Shown here one piece after another: positions 5,098-57,300 of a stretch of DNA of 64,000 nucleotides. Position 1 is the stretch's first letter. The number at the start of each line of letters is the position of its first letter. The stretch covers positions 8,564 through 72,563 of the forward strand of contig JBFWUF010000003.1 in the NCBI GenBank assembly GCA_050247435.1, given 5' to 3'. Under the pieces are notes generated by a model. The model was not told the origin of the DNA, did no database searches, and saw nothing but the letters and a program-made list of their open reading frames with translations. The translations under genes and the position numbers were made by a program. Source of the stretch: Blastocatellales bacterium. GTDB lineage: Bacteria; Acidobacteriota; Blastocatellia; RBC074.

Positions 5098-5166
5098 TCC
5101 ACGAAGGCGCACGAAGGTTCACGAAGCAGAATGTCAGCCTTCGTGTTTCTTCGTGTTCTTCGTGGA
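5098..5166. repeat. Inverted array of CACGAAG units (period 9-10)
   Basis: cacgaag x3 followed by cttcgtg x3 in the pgk-tpiA spacer. Confidence 0.8.
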
Positions 5167-15934: not shown

Positions 15935-16594
15935 ATGAACAGACAAATTTTGAATGTCGTTACAACTTTGCTGATCACAGCATTTGCAGGGTTCGGGCTG
16001 ACGGCGTCCGCGCAAGACCCGTCTTGTTGTCCCCAACCAGTAGCTTGTCCGCAACAGGTAGCCTGCGTGCAGCCGGCTTGTCCGCAACAGGTAGCTTGCG
16101 TACAGCCGGTTTGCCAGCAGCAAACGGCCTGCATGGTACAGACCGTGGCTTATAGCCCCGGCCCGGACATGAAAGACCTGGTCAAGCGCATCGAGAAAGG
16201 CGCGGATCATTTCCGTAAGGATTTCAATGACTCGCTGAGCAGCGATTGTCTAAGCTGCGTCAGCTTCGATGCGGACTCCTACAAAGATCAGGTGAAGGCG
16301 TTTGAAAAGGCGACTGATCGTTTGCGGAAGGATTACGGAGACGAGTGCGACATCAGCGGACAGGTGAATGAAGTGCTCCGCCTCGCGGAATGCATCAGCG
16401 CTTACATAGACCCGTGCACCCTGTGCCCGGAGGCCGTGGCCGAGTGGAATTCGCTGCGCGCCGATCTGGATACACTGGCAAGCCTCAATTGCACAGCGGT
16501 GGCTTGGCAGCAGCCGATCAGTTTGCAGCCGCCGCAGCCTGTGTGCGTCTCGGTGCAGCCCGCCTGTCAGGTGTCCTGCCCCGTTACCCAGTAA
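15935..16594 (+). CDS. Secreted cysteine-rich protein with CPQQVACVQP repeats
   Basis: Strong GGAGGAGG RBS, signal peptide ending ASA-Q, 18 Cys, central helical domain, 33-bp tandem repeat at 16043-16108. Confidence 0.85.
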   Translation: MNRQILNVVTTLLITAFAGFGLTASAQDPSCCPQPVACPQQVACVQPACPQQVACVQPVCQQQTACMVQTVAYSPGPDMKDLVKRIEKGADHFRKDFNDSLSSDCLSCVSFDADSYKDQVKAFEKATDRLRKDYGDECDISGQVNEVLRLAECISAYIDPCTLCPEAVAEWNSLRADLDTLASLNCTAVAWQQPISLQPPQPVCVSVQPACQVSCPVTQ

Positions 16595-18478: not shown

Positions 18479-19753
18479 TCATTTGATCGAATCGGGCATC
18501 ATCTTCATTTTTACCGCATCGGCGGGCAGCGTGTGTGACCGCTCGCTTGCCGGGTTGAACGTGACGCGGCGTTTTTGCATGTACGCCACCTTGCCCAGAT
18601 ATGAAGCCAGAGCTGAACGGTGGCCGCTGACGATGTCGGAGTTGGGCAGCGCGCGCGATTTCACGCAATCGAGGAAATTGCGGACGTGTTGTTGTTCGAG
18701 CGACTTTGTGTTCTTGCGCTCAACCGGAGGAGGCGGAGCGACTCTGCGGCCAGGAGGGGCCCCCTGATAAACGTAACCGCGACGGTCAATGTAGAGCCGG
18801 CCATTGGTTCCCATGAATTCGATGCCTTCGCCGCGCGCGCCGGGAACCAGCGTCGCCTCGAATGTTGCGATCCATTTGCTGGGATATTCGAGTTGAATGT
18901 TGATTGTGTCCGGGGCGGTGCGCCCATCGGGGTACGCGAAGACGCCGCCAGCGGCGGTCGCCACCACCGGCAAATCTTCGCCAACGAACCAATGCACGAC
19001 GTCAATCCAGTGCGTGAAAAGATCGGTGATCTGGCCGCCGCCGAAATCCAGATAGGCGCGCCAGTTGTAAAACTGCTGCGCGTCGAACTCGCGGTATTTG
19101 GCCGGGCCTAGAAACGCCTTCCAATCCAACCCCGCCGGCTTGTCCTTGAAGGGGGCTTTGCGCAGGTGATAGCTGTTGCCGTGCCACCAGGTGCGGACGA
19201 AAGTGATCTTGCCGAGTTTGCCTTTGTCCACGTACTCGCTCTTGGCCTCTTTGTAATGTTCGCCGCTGCGTTGTTGCAAGCCGACCTGCGCGACGCGGTT
19301 GTTGGCTTTGACGGCTTTGATGATGTCGTGGCCTTGTTCGTAAGTGAAAGTCAGCGGCTTTTCGACGTAGATGTCCTTGCCCGCATTGAGCGCGTCAATC
19401 GCCATCCGCGAATGCCAATGATCGGGCGTGGCGATCAACACGGCGTCAACCTCTTTCGAGTCGAGCAGCGAGCGGTATTCGGTGAAGGTCTTGGCCTTGC
19501 CCGCCGTCTTTTCGAGCGCGGCGTTGAGATTTTTATCGTAACAATCGCAGAGCGCGACGACCTCGACGTCGGATTCTTTCAGGAAAACGCTCATCACGTC
19601 GCCGCCGCGATTGCCCGTGCCGATAACACCCAGACGGGCGCGTTCATTGGCGCCCATCACTTTGTTCCAGCTTGCGGCGGTGAAAGTCAGACCAGCCGCG
19701 CCGGTTGCGGTCTGGGCAATGAATTTACGACGAGAACTGTTTGTTTCGGACAT
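18479..19753 (-). CDS. Tat-exported Gfo/Idh/MocA oxidoreductase
   Basis: SRRKFI Tat motif, GVIGTGNRG, IATPDHWH, YVEKP, GGGQITDLFTHWID. Confidence 0.93.
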   Translation of the reverse strand: MSETNSSRRKFIAQTATGAAGLTFTAASWNKVMGANERARLGVIGTGNRGGDVMSVFLKESDVEVVALCDCYDKNLNAALEKTAGKAKTFTEYRSLLDSKEVDAVLIATPDHWHSRMAIDALNAGKDIYVEKPLTFTYEQGHDIIKAVKANNRVAQVGLQQRSGEHYKEAKSEYVDKGKLGKITFVRTWWHGNSYHLRKAPFKDKPAGLDWKAFLGPAKYREFDAQQFYNWRAYLDFGGGQITDLFTHWIDVVHWFVGEDLPVVATAAGGVFAYPDGRTAPDTINIQLEYPSKWIATFEATLVPGARGEGIEFMGTNGRLYIDRRGYVYQGAPPGRRVAPPPPVERKNTKSLEQQHVRNFLDCVKSRALPNSDIVSGHRSALASYLGKVAYMQKRRVTFNPASERSHTLPADAVKMKMMPDSIK

Positions 19754-19804
19754 AAGGTTTCCTTTCTTGCCAGCAGTATCGGGTTGATTGATAAGCCTGC
19801 GGAG

Positions 19805-19840
19805 CATTGTCAATTGGATATTGTCCACTGTCTATTGTTT
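19805..19840. repeat. Heptamer tandem array (cattgtc aattgga tattgtc cactgtc tattgtt)
   Basis: 7-nt periodicity with an ATTG core. Confidence 0.75.
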
Positions 19841-19935
19841 TGCAGCGAGCCGCACGTCAAACCAACCGGCCTGAAATTATGCCAGCTATACACACAAACA
19901 ATTATCCGCGCTGCAAACGCGGCTTCAATGCAGGG

Positions 19936-19970
19936 AAATAGCCAATAATCAATAGCCAATGCCCAATGCG
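19936..19970. repeat. Heptamer tandem array, inverted orientation (aaatagc caataat caatagc caatgcc caatgcg)
   Basis: 7-nt periodicity with a CAAT core, just past the stop codon of the four-helix-bundle gene. Confidence 0.75.
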
Positions 19971-19977
19971 GAAGTCG

Positions 19978-20328
19978 TTATCTTCCTCTGGTTGTATTGA
20001 CAATCCTGCCGAGCAGTCGCCTGATCTCGGCGCATTCTTCGTAAGCCTTTTGATAATCTTCGTCATCGAGAAAGCATCCATCATGCAACACGTTCAGCCA
20101 GTATTTCGTTCGGCCTGCCTTTTGCAGCGCGATGCTCATTTCGTGCGAGAAACCCGTTCCAGTTTCGGTCTCCTGCGCCGATTCGATGTAGGCGCCGATA
20201 TTGGTTCCATCGCTGAGCAGGCTCTTGCTTAAAACATACTCGCGCCTCTCCTCGGTCAGTTTCCGGTAAAGCGCTACGATGCGCAGGGCGAACTTATAAG
20301 ACTTTTCCAGAACTATGTTTTCACTCAT
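19978..20328 (-). CDS. Four helix bundle protein (TIGR02436 / 23S rRNA IVS-protein-like)
   Basis: MSENIVLEKSYKFALRIVALY...EYVLSKSLLSDGTNIGAYIESAQ...F...MSIALQKAGRTKYWL matches the family pattern KSxxFAxxI...LSxQLLRSGTSIGAN.xEA...F.xK.xIAxKEAxET.YWL. AAGGAG RBS. Confidence 0.88.
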   Translation of the reverse strand: MSENIVLEKSYKFALRIVALYRKLTEERREYVLSKSLLSDGTNIGAYIESAQETETGTGFSHEMSIALQKAGRTKYWLNVLHDGCFLDDEDYQKAYEECAEIRRLLGRIVNTTRGR

Positions 20329-20392
20329 GGCTGTCTCCTTGCGTCAGAGTTTAGTGAATTGCCGAGGGTGTGTTGAAGAATCAGCCCTCCGC

Positions 20393-20428
20393 TATTGTAA
20401 ATTGGATATTGAACATTGGATATTGATT
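20393..20428. repeat. Heptamer tandem array (tattgta aattgga tattgaa cattgga tattgat)
   Basis: 7-nt periodicity upstream of the four-helix-bundle gene. Confidence 0.78.
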
Positions 20429-20476
20429 TGCATCGGAAGCCATCATCACAATTGCCGATGACCGCAGAACTCGGAT

Positions 20477-21937
20477 TTAAGCCAGCAGCTTTTTCACGAC
20501 AACGCCTTCAACATCCGTCAGCCGGAATTCGCGCCCCTGGAATTTGTAAGTCAGCTTCGTGTGATCAATGCCCATCAGATGCAGCGCGGTAGCGTGCAGG
20601 TCGTGGACGCTGACCGGATCAACCACCGGGTTGTAACCGATCTCGTCGGTTTCGCCTACGGTCACGCCGGGTTTGACGCCGCCGCCCGCGAGCCACATGC
20701 AAAAAGCTCGCGGATGATGATCGCGCCCCAGCAGCTTCGATCCGCCGCGCGCTTCGTTCATCGGCGTGCGTCCGAATTCGCCGCCCCAGATGACAATCGT
20801 GTCTTCCAGCAAGCCGCGCTGCTTCAGATCGTCGAGCAAAGCTCCGATTGGCCTGTCTGTCTCGCGGCAGATGCGCGGCAGCTTGCCGACGATGTCCGTG
20901 CCGACCGAGTTGCCGTGCGTGTCCCAACCCCAGTGGTAAAGCTGCACGAAGCGCACGCCGCGTTCGACCAATCGCCGGGCCAGCAGACAGTTGTTGGCGA
21001 ATGAAGTTTCGCCGGGCCGCGTACCGTACATCTCGTGAACCTTCGCAGGCTCTTTCGAAATGTCGGTTAATTCGGGCACGCTCGTTTGCATTCGATAGGC
21101 CATTTCGTAAGCCGCGATGCGAGTGTTGATCTCAGGGTCGCCGACCTCGGCCTGCCGCATCTGGTTCAAATCTTTCAGCGCGTCGAGCGTCGAACGCCGC
21201 GTCTCGGCGGTCACGCCTTCGGGATTGTTGACGAACAAAACCGGTTCGCCTTTTGAACGAAATTCGACGCCCTGATGCACGGTCGGCAAAAAACCGCTGC
21301 CCCAGCAACTCTTGCCGCCATCGGGATTGTTCTCGCCTGAAATCAGCACGACGAAGCCGGGCAGGTCTTTGTTCTCGCTGCCGAGTCCGTATTGCAACCA
21401 CGAACCCATGCTCGGACGGCCGGGAATCTGATGTCCGGTGTTCATGAAAATCTGCGCGGGCGCGTGATTGAACTGCGTCGTGTGCATCGTGCGAATGATC
21501 GCGATGTCGTCGGCGTGTTTGGCCAGGCCCGGCAATATGTCCGACATCTCGTTGCCCGATTGCCCATGCTTTTTGAACTCGAATGGTGAGCCGAGCAGCC
21601 GCGGCGTGCCTTTGATGAACGCGAACCGCTCGCCTTTTATGTATTCGTCAGGACAGGGCTGGCCGTCGTATTTCCGCAGCGCCGGTTTGTTGTCGAACAT
21701 ATCCAGCGTCGAAGGCGCGCCGGCCATAAACAGGTAGATGATGCGCTTGGCTTTCGGCGCGAAATGCTGAACGCGCTGCTGACCAGTTGCCGCGAAGATG
21801 TTTTCGTCGAGCAGTGATGAGAGCGCCAGCGCGCCAATGCCGAAGCCGGTCTGCCGGAAGAAATGACGGCGGGTGATTTCGCGGAGTTGTTCTGATTGCC
21901 TGTTCTCTGATTGCCTGTTCTCTGATTGCCTGTTCAT
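20477..21937 (-). CDS. DUF1501 family Tat-exported protein
   Basis: TRRHFF Tat motif, [50 protein letters not shown]. Confidence 0.92.
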
Positions 21938-21969
21938 GGATGCGCCTCGATTGTTGTTCATCAATTCAA

Positions 21970-24900
21970 CTATTCTTTCGTCAATGTCTCATCCAAATTC
22001 AACAAGACATTCGCCACCATCGTCCAGGCCGCAAACTCAGCCGCGCTCGTTTTGGCCGAATGATTCCTGGCGACCTTCCCGGCCTCCGCCGCGTTCGCGG
22101 CAAAGTTATTCAGTTGCTGTTGGTACAGCGCGGCGATGCGTTCGATTTCTTTCTTCTGCGGCGTTCGCGTCAGGCAGGAGCGGAAGCCATAGCTCACTCG
22201 CGCATTCACGCTGTCGCCGCCTTCTTCGATCATTCGCTTGGCTAATGCGCGCCCCGCTTCCATCGCCGCTTCGTCGTTGAGCATCGTCAAGGCTTGCAGC
22301 GGCGTGTTCGTTCTCACCCTGCGAACAGTGCAGTATTCGCGGCTCGTCGCGTCGAAGGTCATCATTGCCGGATGCGGCGACGAGCGGCGAACGAACGTGT
22401 AGAGGCTGCGGCGGTATCGGTCTTCGCCTTTGCTCACCGTCCATTTTTCGCCGCTGTAGGGCGCTTTCCAGACGCCGTCGGGTTGAAGAGGGAAGACGCT
22501 TGGCCCGCCCAGCTTGTGGCTGAGCAATCCGCTCACCGAGAGCGTCACGTCGCGGATCATCTCAGCCTCTATTCGGAATCGCGGGCCGCGCGCGAGCAGG
22601 CGATTGTACGGGTCTTTTTCGAGCAACGCCGGAGTCGCCGCCGACGATTGGCGATAGGCTGATGAAGTGACGATCAGGCGAACGAGCTTTTTCATGCTCC
22701 AGCCGGTTGATTGCGGATTGCGGATTGCGGATTGCGGATTGGTTTTGTCTTCCTGTCCCCTTGTCCTCTTGTCCCCTTGTCCCATAAATTCGGCCGCCAG
22801 CCAGTCCAGCAGTTCGGGATGCCAGGGGCGTTCGCCCTGCGCGCCGAAATCCTCGCTGGTTTCGACGATGCCGTGTCCGAAAATCTGCTCCCAGAAACGA
22901 TTGACTACAACGCGCGCGGTCAACGGATTGTTTTCGTCAACTAGCCATCGCGCCAGGCCCAGGCGATTGACCGGCGCGTTGTCGGGCAACGGCGGCAAAA
23001 CGGCGGGCGTTGCGGCGAACATCTTTTCACCTTTGTTCAAGAAGCTGCCGCGTTCCCGGAAGAATGTTGACGGGCGGTCGAACGATTGGCGCTCCTGCAT
23101 TACCAGAGCCGTCGTGATGTTCAACGCCTTCATCTCATCCCGCAATTTTTCCATCCGGTCGCGGTCGGGTTTAAGCAGTGGCGTCGTTGCGCGAAACTGC
23201 GCTGACAAATCTTCTTTTTGTTTTTGAGTGCGATCAGGCAGGAGGATCGAAAGGATCGGGCGCAGCCTCGCTGAGACGCCTACGACCAGTTTCGGCTCTT
23301 CAGCCGTCGTGACCGAAAGACGGAAACGGCCGATGCCCTGATTGAGCGAACCGCCCAGATGTTTGAGCTTAATCGTCAGGGTCGCGCCCGAATCCTGAGC
23401 GAAAGGCCTTTCGGCGGCGAAGACACCCTGGCGCGGCAGCCTGAATGTTTGATCGTTCGTCGCGTTGACGAACCATCCGGGCGGGCGGTCAGTCGCGGTG
23501 TTGCCAAGCTCTTTGCTGAAGAAAGGTTTGGTCTCAAGCCGGTAAGCCAGATCGTCCACGAAGGCGTCTTTGAATTTGACTTCATGCGGCTGCGCGTCAT
23601 CAGGCGATGCGACTTCGAGTTCGATTCCGGTGAGCAGGAAATTGCCGTAAGGATCGCGCCCCGGCCCGCCCTTCGGCAAACTCGCGTCAGGCAATGCTTC
23701 GACGCGCAGGGCAGTGATGTTCTTCAAATCGGTCTTTGTGGTGATAACGTAAACGTCTCGCTCTTGAGCCTCGCCGGTCACGAGCACGGATTTGTCATCC
23801 AATTCTTTTAGCGTCGCGCCGCCAGTTGATTCCAGCTTGATCGGATCGAGAGCCGTCCACTTGCTCTGCTCGTCCAGCAAGCCACGCTCCCACTTCGCCT
23901 GCTCGGCGTCCAATTCAGAAGTTTGCGTCTTGAGCTTCGTCTCGATCTGTTTGATCTCGCCGTCGAGCGTTTTGCGCCTCTCTTCCTGCTCCGGCGTCGG
24001 CAGGCTGATTTGCGGCTCCAGGATGTACCGCGATTCGTCCGCGCCCGGTGTCTGATAAGCCACCTGATATTCGGCGTTGTCGAAAAAGGCCATCAGCCGG
24101 TAAAAGTCTTTCTGCGAGAACGGGTCGTATTTGTGATTGTGGCACTGGGCGCAGGCGATGGTGCTGCCCAGCCAGACGGTCGCGGTAGTGCCGACGCGAT
24201 CAACCAGAGTTTCAAAACGCGTCTCTTCAGGATCAATCCCGCCTTCCTGATTGACCATCGTGTTGCGGTGAAATCCGGTGGCGATCTTCTGGTTAATCGT
24301 CGCGTTCGGCAACATATCGCCTGCAATCTGTTCAATCGTGAATTGATCAAACGGCATGTCTTTGTTGAAGGCATTGATCACCCAGTCGCGGAACTTCCAC
24401 GCCACGCGCAGGTTGTCTTTCTCGTAGCCGTTCGAATCGGCGTAGCGCGCCAGATCGAGCCAGGGGCGCGCCCACCGTTCGCCGTATTGTTGAGACGCGA
24501 GCAAACGATCAACGACTTTCTCGTAAGCGTCGGGCGAAGTGTCGGCCAGGAATTCGTCCACCTCTTTCACGCTCGGCGGCAACCCGATCACGTCCAGATA
24601 GACTCGGCGCAGCAGCGTTGCGCGATCAGCTTCCGGCGAAGGCGCCAAACCTTCTTTCTCCAACCGGGCCAGGATGAACGCGTCAATCGGATTGCGAACC
24701 CACGACTGATTTTTGACCTGCGGCAAGGATGGACGAATCGGTTTCACATAAGCCCAATGCTTCGGCGGCCCATTCCCCTTGTCTCCTTGTCCCCTTGTCT
24801 CCTTGTCTCCCGCTCCCCAACTCGCGCCCTGATTAATCCAGCGGCGGATCATCGCAATCTCTGCTGGTTTGAGCGGATCGCCGCCCATCGGCATTCGCGC

Positions 24901-25227
24901 TTCGTTGCCTTCGCCGAGAATCCGCTTCATCAACAGACTGCGCCTGCTGTCGCCGGGGATGAGCGCCGCGCCCGAAATGCCGCCTTTCATCACCGATGGC
25001 TGATTGTCGAGGCGCAGTTGCCCCATCGCTTTCTTCTCGCCGTGGCATTGATAACAACTCCGCGCGAAGATCGGCTCGATCTGGCTTTTGAAATCAATGC
25101 GCCGTTGCAGCTTCGATCGAGCGGCGACTTTGTTTTGCGCGGAGGCGTCGGGAATCAGCGAAGCCAATCCGTAAACGGCGGCTGCGAAGAAGAGAATACA
25201 GACCAGGCGTTTGGATGTTCGACACAT
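21970..25227 (-). CDS. Planctomycete-type cytochrome c / DUF1549 / DUF1553 (PSD1) protein
   Basis: CYQCH and CAQCH heme motifs, [48 protein letters not shown]. Confidence 0.92.
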
Positions 25228-25367
25228 ACTTGACCTGCCGGGATGTTGTTTGTTGTTGTTTCGATCAGCGAATCCGACCGCAAGAGTTCGTTGGTAAAAC
25301 CAACTTTCGCCGCAAAGATAGTACACGGATCAGGCTGATGCAACGGATTCAAACTGAAAGAGGAAGG

Positions 25368-54395: not shown

Positions 54396-57300
54396 TCAAT
54401 CCAGCCTCCAACCCCACAGTGTGCGATGGCGAGTGTAGATGCGCACGGAGCCATTGTGTTCGCCGGAAACCAGCCGCTTGCCATCGGGAGAAAACGCGAC
54501 GGCGTGAACAGGCGAGTCGTGAACCCCGATGCGGGTGATGAGCTTGCGCGGGCTGACATTCCAAAGAGCGATGGTCTGATCTTCGCTTGCCGAAGCCACT
54601 TCGCGTCCGTCGGGAGAGAAGGCGACCGACTTTACCCGCGATGAGTGGCGTCCGATCACGGACTTCTCTTGCAGAGAGGTGGTTTGCCATAGCCGCACCG
54701 CGCCCTGATCTTCTCCGGTCACCAGCCAATTACCGTCGGGCGAGAATCTGACGCTGACAAGATTTATGTTTGGCAGCGTATGTTCCGCGACTAGCCTCCA
54801 TTCCGCCGTGTCCCAGAGCAGCGCTTGCCCCTGCGTCGTCACGCAAACCAATCGCCGCCCGTCCGGCGAAAAATCCATGCCGTAGATTTGCAAATAGGGC
54901 TGAGCTTCTCTCTCGACAAATCTCACGATCATTTGCCGGCGCGTGAGGTCATACACGCCGAACGAAGTCGCCAGGAACCTGCCGTCAGGAGAGATCGCAA
55001 GACAATAGCTGGAACGATCCACTTTGCTGACAGGAGATGGGAAATTGAATAGTGGCCGGCGTTGCGCGAGATCCCAGACGATGACGGCGCCATCAGCGTC
55101 GCAGGAGGCTGCGGTGGCCCCATCCGGCGAGAAAGCCACCGCCGTCACGCGCCTCTCGTGTCCCGCCAGCGCCATCTCTTTGATCCCATCCGCCAGATTC
55201 CAGATAATCACCGAGCGGTCTCCGCTCGCGGAGGCCAATCGTTTACCGCCGGCGGAGAAGCTGACGGCGCGGACTGAATCGCTGTGCTCGTTGAAACTCG
55301 CCGCCAGTTCTTTTTCGGACGCGTCCCAGAGCAGGATCGCCCCGTCCGAGTGCGCCGAAACCAGCCAGCGCCCGTCTGGAGAAAACGCCAGGCTCATCAC
55401 ATTCGCCGGGCATTTCAGGCGGGCGAGCTTCGACATTTTGATCGCGTCCCAAATGATTATGTCTTCGGCCCCAGAAGCCGCCAGCTTTCCATCAGGCGAG
55501 TACGCGACTGCGCGCCCGTGATCCTGGTGCGGGCGCTGGGATGAAAGAAGGCGCGGTTGAAATGTTTTCCAGAAGCCGCTCGTATCACAGAAAGCGACTT
55601 CGCCTCCCGATCCGGCGCTGACGAAGCGTTTGGCGTCAGGCGCGAAGGCTCCCATCGCCCAGACCGGGGGCGGGTCCGGCTCCTGGAGATCTCCTGTTTC
55701 CAGATCGTAAGTAGTCCATGTGGGAGTAAGCATGAAGCGTCCGTCAGGCGAGAGCAGAAAATAACCATACTTGAAACCCTTTGTGACAACGGTGCGAACC
55801 TTCTCCCATTTCCCGACGGCCCACACGTTCTTTTCAAAGGTGTCAGTGGGCGTGACCAGGAAGCGGCCGTCGACTGAAAAAGCGATTGCTCTGACCACGC
55901 CGCGATGACTGGGCAAGACAGCGGCTTTCGTCAATCGGGCGGCATCCCAGACGATCACTGCCCCGTTGACGCCCGCCGTCGCAAACCATTTGCCGTCAGG
56001 CGAGAAGGCGAGCGCGGTGACCCAGCCGGTGTGATCCGTGAGCGTTTTCAACCGCTCGCGCCGCGCGAAATCCCAGATGATTACCTGATTGTCTTCGCCT
56101 GATGAAACCAGCAGCCGGCCGTCGGGCGAGAAGATCACGCGCCGCGCCGCCGCCGTGTGGCCGTCGCGCAGCAATTTCTCTTCCCACGTTTCATTCAACG
56201 AAGCCCAGGCGGCCATTGCCGCCGCCACAGCGGCCATCGCAATCGCCGCCGCGCTCATCTTCATCAATCTGCGGCTGGAGAGCGTTTCGATCCGCCGCTT
56301 CAACCGCTTCAACTCATCCAACATCTCACCCGCCGATGCGTACCGCTCCTCGCGGTTGGGTCGCAGCGCCTTGCGGATGATTCGCTGCAACTCTCTTGGA
56401 ACGCGGTCGAACGCTGCGCTCTTCGAAAGCGGATAGTCGCCGCTGGTCAACGCCTGTGAAGCTTCCGCGCGCGTGGGGCCGGTGAAGAGCCGCTCTCCGG
56501 TGACCATCTCGAACAACACCACGCCGAGCGAAAATATATCGGTGCGGCCGTCGAGCTGTTCGCCGCGCGCCTGCTCAGGCGACATATAACTGGCCGTGCC
56601 CATAATCGCGCCGGGAGTGGTGAGCGATGGGGAGGCGGAGGGAGTGGGAGAGGGAGAGAGAGGGGGAGGGGGAGAGAGGGGGGAATGTGAAACAATCGCT
56701 CTCCCCCTCTCCGGCTCTCCCACTCCCCCATTCTCCCGCTCTTCCCCTGTCAGCTTGGCGATGCCGAAATCGAGAACCTTCACGAGGTCGTCTTTGCGCA
56801 CCATGATGTTTTCAGGCTTGATGTCGCGGTGAATGATCCACGCGGTGTGCGCGGCCTTGATCGCGCTGGCGACCTGAATGGCGATCTCAATCGCTTTTTC
56901 GACTCCGATCTCCCGCTGCTCTTTTGTCAGAGGATCGGTCAGCATCTCGCGCAGCGTCCGGCCCTCGACGTATTCGGTGGCGATGAAGTGCGCTCCGTTG
57001 GTGTGAATGATTTCGTAAATGGTGATGATGTTTGGGTGATTGAGCGCCGACGTCGTGCGCGCCTCCTGCTCGAATCGGCGCACCCGTTCGGCGTCGGCGG
57101 TGAATTCGGTGGGGAGCATTTTCAACGCCACCGTGCGTTGAAGGATTTCGTCACGGGCCTTCCAAACTACACCCATTCCCCCCGCGCCGAGCCGCGTCTT
57201 GACCAGATAATGACTGATCCGCTCTCCTTCGAGCGGCTTTGACGGCTTGCCGCCGTCACTGACCGGAGACTCGATAAAATCTTCAGCCGCCGATTCAAGG

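Follow-up and report, generated by a model that had tools for sequence, protein, structure and literature searches.

A small gene located between two host genes of the window (the whole stretch of 64,000 nucleotides analyzed here) and the tandem 7-nt arrays around it constitute one copy of a widespread, self-contained cassette, composed of a gene of the PF05635/TIGR02436 family, which encodes a four-helix-bundle protein, and lineage-specific heptamer arrays. Among the heptamer-armed cassettes of this kind, the window copy is somewhat atypical. On balance, we favor the explanation that the cassette is a dispensable element that spares its host and that its arrays are likely sites of its own pentameric protein; a hairpin resembling that of the intervening sequences (IVSs) of rRNA is possible. 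PF05635 is a large family, first found in rRNA IVSs, with solved structures, and tandem heptamers and the ORFs of IVSs have both long been unexplained. If the gene and the repeat form one module, these three loose ends become a single question: the binding of a pentamer to its own heptamer.

The gene and its arrays at the operon junction

The 116-aa ORF on the minus strand (19978–20328) matched PF05635 with 62.2 bits (cut-off, 33.8; residues 3–107 on profile positions 2–105) and TIGR02436 with 59.3 bits (cut-off, 24), both matches being full length and above the curated cut-offs. These matches and phmmer, which aligned residues 1–115 with the PDB chain 2rld_A (E = 1.6e-23), place it in the 2RLD-like subfamily. 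By sequence, the solved relatives of the protein are the PDB entries 2RLD and 2GSC, each deposited with five chains. The AGGAG at 20335–20339 (minus strand), found by eye 6–7 nt 5′ of the ATG, is a putative Shine-Dalgarno-like sequence. The upstream host gene is a DUF1501 gene (20477–21964, minus strand; 540.9 bits), whose true start is probably downstream of 21964. The downstream host gene (18479–19753, minus strand; read from the ATG at 19753) encodes a Gfo/Idh/MocA oxidoreductase with a twin-arginine-like N-terminus. Thus, the placement by the earlier note of a TIGR02436-like gene between co-oriented DUF1501 and Gfo/Idh/MocA genes was confirmed by the profile matches and by the location of all three genes on the minus strand. 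The cassette occupies the interval from the stop codon of the upstream host gene to the start of the downstream one and leaves both genes undamaged.

Three arrays with a 7-nt period accompany the gene, and their orientations are given here for the minus strand. The 5′ arm, A1 (20393–20428), consists of five CAATnnn heptamers and lies 65 nt upstream of the ATG. The 3′ arm, A2 (19936–19970), starts 8 nt after the stop codon and consists of five (C/T)ATTGnn heptamers, the inverse of A1. The distal arm, A3 (19805–19840), is composed of CAAT-type heptamers that repeat A1 almost directly and run inverse to A2, and it lies about 50 nt before the Gfo start. The sequence ATTGT(A/C)AATTGGATATTG is common to A1 and A3, with 17 of 18 positions identical. 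The coordinates, the orientations and the shared outer repeat, all of which had been described before, were reproduced by direct reading. A regular expression requiring at least three ATTGNNN or CAATNNN units also recovered all three arrays, with no match in 1.5 Mb of shuffled genome, and TRF (score ≥ 30) reported two of the three (19937–19960 and 20393–20426, both with period 7). The spacer of about 95 nt between A2 and A3 (19841–19935, minus strand) is kept in two related genomes (G002 and G009) when the loci are compared, and the array best conserved among these two and the window's genome (G000) is A3. This spacer contains a GC stem that resembles a terminator (19922→19906) and two hexamers that resemble a sigma-70 pair (19928→19901), both being consensus matches only; the consensus search gave two promoter-like sites against 0.9 expected.

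The arrays can pair with each other. The predicted energy of the A1:A2 duplex is −37.5 kcal/mol, as compared with −13.6 ± 2.9 for 300 shuffles, and that of the A2:A3 duplex is −27.2 kcal/mol, as compared with −16.7 ± 3.8 for shuffles. A2 can therefore pair with either A1 or A3, and the partners may switch. The earlier note had proposed that the ORF is looped out by its upstream and downstream arrays. This proposal stands in part: in the minimum free energy (MFE) fold of the 671-nt transcript, A1 is indeed paired with A2 and the ORF is enclosed, but the fold as a whole is unremarkable (z = −1.64), and, as described below, 13 of the 30 loci in the window's subfamily lack the 5′ arm. An Rfam search of 19000–23000 at E ≤ 1 gave no family match.

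History of the cassette at the junction

The cassette is intact at the DUF1501/Gfo junction in G000, G002 and G009; G009 is an unpublished genome, on which this count of three and the loci L017, L033, L125 and L150 of the survey partly rest. In G007 and G004, the DUF1501 and Gfo genes are adjacent, with neither the gene nor the arrays between them, and in G001 and G005, deletion remnants of the DUF1501 gene and the four-helix-bundle gene are found. A tree built from the Gfo orthologues places the empty genomes within the range of filled and decayed ones, with G007 as the sister of G005 at an SH-aLRT support of 99. The simplest history is that the cassette was ancestral at this junction and was later lost or eroded. 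Since relatives have lost or eroded it, the cassette is dispensable, and the gene and the arrays go together. A comparison with relatives for an empty site had been suggested in the earlier note, and such sites exist (G007 and G004), lacking the gene and the arrays alike. Vertical conservation of the gene without arrays, which the same note had set against its own proposal, was not what we found: the gene did descend vertically, but its arrays came with it and some relatives lost it.

Arrays in the genome and their association with PF05635 genes

The window's genome (8.8 Mb in 156 contigs; 97% complete) contains 530 period-7 arrays with three or more copies, or 830 arrays when period 8 is included. 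They represent 119 canonical units, and 7 is by far the commonest period (480) among the arrays with at least 3.5 copies. These 7-nt units occur at many, mostly intergenic, loci and thus have the character of dispersed tandem-heptanucleotide (STRR-like) repeats. Most arrays take part in a short-loop hairpin, i.e., an array, a loop of 2–90 nt and the inverse array, of which 180 were found. Each unit family has a fixed order of arms, with the G-rich one leading in 162 of the 180 hairpins and following in 13. In the most frequent unit family (31 hairpins), the loops (6–80 nt) have no visible common sequence by eye, without alignment. A MITE or REP-like repeat was rejected on the same inspection by eye, as the hairpin loops have no common internal sequence.

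In this genome, five genes exceed the PF05635 cut-off, and one further match is weak. Four of the five are flanked on both sides by arrays within 150 nt, each locus having its own unit, and the fifth has a hairpin 3′ of its stop codon. Among 6184 proxy genes (longest-ORF calls), only 42 have arrays on both flanks (Fisher p = 1.3e-8), so that the genome-wide enrichment of arrays near genes of this family, a check proposed in advance, is clear. The earlier note had further suggested that this module seeded the other arrays of the window. This idea failed, because the units there are different ones (GATTGCG, 8-mers and a 15-mer). Only 13 more arrays of the ATTG/CAAT type occur elsewhere in the genome, and the four ORF-less hairpins of this type are all arranged as ATTG-arm, loop and CAAT-arm, like A2–A3. 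Several abundant heptamer units have no resident cognate PF05635 gene in the genome, and in another genome, G010, a heptamer hairpin is present and a PF05635 match is absent.

Survey of related loci

For the survey, a search for related loci was seeded with an alignment of 10 sequences. With one genome per species, at least 600 stretches matched the pattern, and 588 of those listed were confirmed as relatives. The set examined comprises 140 loci: 30 main-type loci (20 relatives), 30 loci of the window's subfamily (60 relatives) and 80 loci from one-genome-per-species contigs, among the matches listed. According to the record title or the NCBI rank, they span at least eight named phyla, namely, Acidobacteriota, Chloroflexota, Bacillota, Planctomycetota, Pseudomonadota, Thermodesulfobacteriota, Bacteroidota and Cyanobacteriota; further loci are in metagenome-assembled genomes labelled Gemmatimonadaceae, Akkermansia, Kiritimatiellaeota and SAR324. 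The family is also carried by Bacteroides thetaiotaomicron, which served as a control.

Three features are common in this set. One is the period: the best-scoring period was 7 in 103 of the 5′ flanks and 111 of the 3′ flanks, and 8 in nine and eight, respectively, and 94 of the 140 loci have a 7- or 8-nt array on both flanks. Another is the complementarity of the flanks: at 102 loci, it surpassed all 20 shuffles with a margin of 2, and at the 98 loci whose arm score was at least 14, the arms (median, 32 nt) are 89.4% complementary over 3490 positions. The last is the position of the 3′ array, which starts at a median of 14 nt past the stop codon. The number of units per array has a median of 4.4 (interquartile range, 3.4–5.8) and spans 3 to more than 20, with no fixed value of five. 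At 10 of the 140 loci, a host ORF runs straight through the cassette. By a crude longest-ORF call, the neighbors are co-oriented with the gene upstream at 102 of 136 loci and downstream at 89 of 131, a count that is uninformative, since we judge such a share to be near the usual level.

The mismatches within the arms were also classified. G·U-type mismatches (126) and A·C-type mismatches (100) do not differ clearly (p = 0.096), and transversions account for 145; per locus, G·U exceeds A·C in 35 and falls behind in 25, with 38 ties, which is not significant (p = 0.25). The mismatch types therefore lend no support to selection for RNA pairing in the sense transcript.

The window's subfamily and the main type have different layouts. 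Among the main-type loci, 83 of 110 are brackets (an arm, the ORF and the inverse arm) and seven have a downstream hairpin, whereas in the window's subfamily, the bracket occurs at 15 of 30 loci and a hairpin immediately 3′ of the stop codon at 16; in 13 of these 16 loci, the 5′ arm is absent. A period-7 array of the CATT type is found within 260 nt past the stop codon at 29 of the 30 loci. The window, G002 and G009 have both features, with bracket and 3′-hairpin scores of 14.0 and 10.5, 16 and 15.5, and 13 and 15.5, respectively, and G002 carries an additional full hairpin upstream of the ORF. Since 13 of the 30 subfamily loci have the 3′ hairpin only, enclosure of the ORF is not a conserved feature: looping-out is possible at the window locus, but it is not conserved.

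Relationship between the repeat unit and the protein

When placed in a common register, the 5′-arm unit of the main type reads C-A-G-T-G-G-T, with A in 75, G in 72, T in 60 and G in 66 of 88 cases at the core positions, and the 3′ arm is the complement of this CAGTGGT arm. The conservation of the core exceeds that in all 200 letter-shuffled controls. In the window's subfamily, the core is AATG/CATT (A, T and T in 24, 20 and 22 of 29 3′ arrays), which the window's own arrays match.

The similarity of the units follows that of the proteins. Units no more than one base apart were found in 86% of the pairs with a protein identity of 80% or higher, 40% of those at 65–80%, 9.5% of those at 55–65% and 0.5% of those below 30%. 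The Mantel correlation between unit and protein similarity (r = −0.31) was reached in none of 300 permutations, and the trend persists between different phyla. Individual junctions illustrate this relationship. At the response regulator/oxidoreductase junction, two genera carry cassettes whose proteins are 40–42% identical and whose units differ, and the flanking host peptides are, by eye, far more alike than the cassette proteins. At the guaB/guaA junction, diverged proteins likewise go with different units. Such co-divergence is, however, equally expected from simple co-inheritance. In the raw mutual information, which is inseparable from shared ancestry, base 4 of the unit is associated with alignment columns 57, 46, 83 and 53, and base 5 with column 58; for base 4 and the columns beside the S-I-P-x-N-I-A-E-G motif, z reaches 8.5, again as a raw value inseparable from shared ancestry. 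Only three independent pairs lie on supported branches of a tree built without the motif-adjacent columns, too few for significance. No single alignment column follows the choice of G or A at base 3 of the unit across the two subfamilies.

Possible mechanism and alternative explanations

A bare stem needs no fixed period, no fixed core and no co-divergence, and we therefore infer that a sequence-specific factor reads the arrays. The four-helix-bundle protein is the candidate reader because it is the sole conserved gene of the cassette. The arrays are probably, with a chance that we put at about even, binding sites of the encoded protein. At the core of the mechanism, to which we would give roughly equal weight for and against, the protein would bind the arrays in competition or cooperation with hairpin formation. 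The five-chain protein might take one heptamer per subunit, for which the median of 4.4 units per array would be of the appropriate size. The model of a ring with one repeat per subunit is drawn by analogy from TRAP, the trp attenuation protein of B. subtilis, a homo-oligomeric ring that binds one short RNA repeat per subunit; the folds are unrelated, and TRAP recognizes triplets rather than heptamers. A long hairpin would arise from the inverse arrays, whether in the transcript or in single-stranded DNA. In the window's subfamily, the inverse partner of the CATT-type array is located downstream (the 3′ hairpin), upstream (the bracket around the ORF) or on both sides, the window being a case of both. 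Processing of the operon transcript by RNase III might follow from such folding, a natural consequence in which we nevertheless place rather limited confidence. Efficient cutting would destroy the host mRNA at those loci whose host ORF continues through the cassette.

A broader conjecture, which we offer only tentatively, is that PF05635/TIGR02436 proteins in general form rings that bind tandem heptamers, with a specificity that changes from one protein lineage to another. The cassettes would then form an undescribed class of selfish element that does no harm, settling between genes or inside them with the host frame kept open. Their decay or spread would account for the gene-less heptamer hairpins and arrays, a puzzle for annotators since the STRRs of cyanobacteria, and the rRNA IVS would be a special case. 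If so, a ring protein that reads lineage-specific repeats would be a candidate for a programmable binder of nucleic acids. Annotators can take the arrays as the borders of cassettes, and the arrays also account for odd in-frame repeat insertions and nested genes.

The alternatives differ in what they make of the arrays. If the element acted purely as RNA, the arrays would only form a stem that RNase III cuts, freeing or uncoupling the ORF, and the protein would never touch them. The pairing of A1 with A2 around the ORF in the MFE fold, with a duplex energy far below that of the shuffles, and the 89.4% complementarity of the arms in 98 loci are what such an element should show, and in the Coxiella IVS, as far as described in PMC4990558, RNase III cuts at the first 5′ heptamer. 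Nevertheless, a stem alone leaves the 7-nt period and the AGT-G core shared across phyla unexplained, G·U mismatches are not in excess over A·C ones, the ORF is not enclosed in 13 of the 30 subfamily loci, and a host ORF reads through the cassette in 10 of the 140 loci; we consider this explanation improbable. Of equal probability is a mobile DNA element that would be excised and inserted, perhaps by way of a circle, with the inverse arrays serving as terminal repeats or as a folded site like attC, so that the layout with the ORF plus a 3′ hairpin and the bracket would be circular permutations of each other. The two layouts do permute identical parts, and this reading would also accommodate the presence, absence and decay of the cassette at one junction, the occupation of one junction by different lineages, the related cassettes in different phyla, the fixed arm polarity of the 180 short-loop hairpins (G-rich arm first in 162 and second in 13) and the symmetry of the mismatch types. 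Against it, the cassette contains no recombinase, transposase or reverse transcriptase, the genome has no RVT_1 match, no target-site duplication was seen, the hairpin loops differ from one another, unlike the copies of a single element, and the history of the locus is one of vertical descent and loss with no recent gain. An integron gene cassette, a promoterless small ORF with an attC imperfect inverted repeat that is inserted along the direction of transcription, resembles the present cassette in layout only; this is an analogy and not membership, for the arms here are tandem heptamers and not attC core sites.

Two further explanations have much lower probability. The association could be incidental, the arrays being a generic intergenic repeat and the gene merely placed where arrays are common. 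Indeed, 530 period-7 arrays stand against five or six genes, and many ordinary genes are flanked by arrays. This is very improbable in view of the enrichment (p = 1.3e-8), the two arms of a locus being matched inverse copies, the link between gene and arrays in genomes of many phyla and the empty site that lacks arrays. Least probable of all is an accessory of a retroelement like the diversity-generating retroelements (DGRs), i.e., an Avd-like protein acting with a reverse transcriptase that synthesizes the repeats. Avd, the DGR accessory protein, is a pentameric four-helix bundle whose fold is related to that of PF05635, and arms with the G-rich array first would fit a telomerase-like addition at both 3′ ends of a break. 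However, a search for RVT_1 at E ≤ 0.001 gave no match in the 97%-complete genome, while 3 of 14 control genomes gave matches, and no pair of template and variable repeats lies nearby; moreover, the solved relatives by sequence are 2RLD and 2GSC and not Avd. The analogy with Avd and DGRs drawn in the earlier note is thus not borne out by the genome. The explanation that we prefer on balance therefore remains that of a host-sparing cassette whose arrays are likely sites of its own protein.

Relation to known systems

Dispersed heptanucleotide repeats are known from cyanobacteria as STRRs. Comparable repeats have been described as TAACTGA repeats in Beggiatoaceae, cyanobacteria and Bacteroidetes, where they are direct repeats near start codons and not inverse pairs (PMC4679880), and as the heptanucleotide elements of Geobacter (PMC2700814). 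As far as these two papers describe them, they are like the arrays of the window's genome in being tandem 7-nt repeats, mostly intergenic, of few copies, at many loci and in several unit families. The main texts of both papers contain no occurrence of "S23", "intervening sequence" or "four helix". In the literature searched, we found no account of this class of cassette, and the Coxiella IVS was the only case in which heptamer arrays next to a gene of the PF05635/TIGR02436 family had been described.

This IVS, located in the 23S rRNA of Coxiella burnetii, carries an S23p ORF and a terminal stem of 28 bp (PMC4990558); ORF-bearing IVSs of 23S rRNA are also present in Leptospira and others, as cited there. 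Its 5′ end has three tandem heptamers, a number that differs from strain to strain, and RNase III cuts at the first of these repeats (PMC4990558). The window element differs in that it lies between the protein genes of an operon and not inside an rRNA, has three arrays and belongs to a subfamily that often has the 3′ hairpin only. The likeness extends, at most, to a stem that can fold around an S23p-type ORF or next to it. Within this limit, the earlier note's comparison holds good in that the gene and its arrays form a unit like that of an ORF-bearing rRNA IVS. The Coxiella case, as far as PMC4990558 describes it, is a real precedent for processing, though one applied here by analogy. As described there, the IVS has a member of this protein family in its loop, complementary termini and tandem heptamers; the cassette has the family, the heptamers and arms that can pair. 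The Coxiella unit given there, GACAGAT/GACAGAA, is also nearly identical to the AGAAGAC unit of another cassette in the window's genome (C73).

Cassettes nested in long host reading frames

The four-helix-bundle (PF05635) gene and its flanking heptamer arrays, together referred to as the cassette, were examined in a sample of 140 related loci for stop codons in the −1 frame, counted from that of the four-helix-bundle ORF. At least five such stops are present across the cassette in 104 of the loci, and none is present in 10 (L022, L044, L047, L053, L054, L060, L077, L093, L115 and L121). Among these 10 stop-free loci, the open frame extends over 414–1104 codons in nine and reaches at least one end of the retrieved DNA in eight. 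Therefore, at these loci the cassette is nested within a long host ORF. Seven of the hosts are restriction-modification methylases of the type IIG, MmeI or Eco57I type. The insert is placed between the YYTP motif and motif I (DPACGSG) in L022 and L053, and DPACGSG is found downstream of the insert in L054. When translated in the host frame, the nested inserts are rich in G, S, R and D.

In-frame repeats were also found in coding genes of the window. Heptamer and octamer arrays at 22709–22783 and 24774–24810 lie in frame within the ORF 21970..25326 (−), which encodes a PSCyt1/PSCyt2/PSD1 protein of 1118 aa. There they specify short G/D/K/T/R/Q-rich stretches (aa 848–873 and 173–185, respectively) that fall between or within the Pfam domains. 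Another example is a perfect 15-nt unit, present in three copies at 21891–21935, in the putative N-terminus of the DUF1501 ORF, for which the start codon is tentative. The three copies specify the same five residues in succession, immediately ahead of a twin-arginine-like signal.

Order and polarity of the arms

Throughout G000 (the genome that contains the window), the short-loop heptamer hairpins, each consisting of an array, a loop and the inverse array, have a constant arm order in every family of repeat units (34:0, 14:0, 13:0 and 10:0, for example). Of the 180 hairpins, 162 have the G-rich arm in first position and 13 have it in second. The 5′ arm is likewise G-rich in 81 of the 98 bracket-type cassettes, in which the two inverse arms enclose the ORF. 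The cassette of the window is an exception to this trend.

Different cassettes at one junction

At the response regulator/oxidoreductase and guaB/guaA junctions, the cassettes differ between genera in both lineage and repeat unit (G000:C73/L025 versus L001; L052 versus L073). Such differences at the same host junction suggest replacement, repeated insertion at one gap, or rapid joint divergence.

Sequence features between arrays two and three

In the window, the spacer that separates arrays two and three carries a sigma-70-like hexamer pair on the (−) strand at 19901–19928 (TTGAAG, 16 nt, GATAAT), which overlaps a terminator-like GC stem; both are predicted from consensus matches only. This stretch is conserved in the relative G009, and the GC stem is only partly retained in G002. 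The stretch may be a promoter for the Gfo/Idh/MocA gene or a terminator for the cassette.

Arrays apart from the gene family, and other repeats

A hairpin of heptamer arrays of the AAAGTTT type occurs upstream of the Gfo/Idh/MocA orthologue in G010 (locus L039), and this genome (92% complete, with 16 kb excluded) gave no PF05635 match at E ≤ 1e-5. Therefore, the arrays can occur without a resident gene of this family. In G000, a longer PF05635-like ORF (G000:C45:10159-10374) shows a weak match of 29.5 bits, below the cut-off, and the array downstream of it has a 9-nt period, not a heptamer one.

Tandem Repeats Finder (TRF) also detected two inverse array pairs in the window, one at 56613–56742 (GA-rich units followed by CT-rich ones, each about 8 nt long) and one at 5100–5164 (units of 9–10 nt), as well as 2.2 copies of a 33-nt repeat at 16043–16113.
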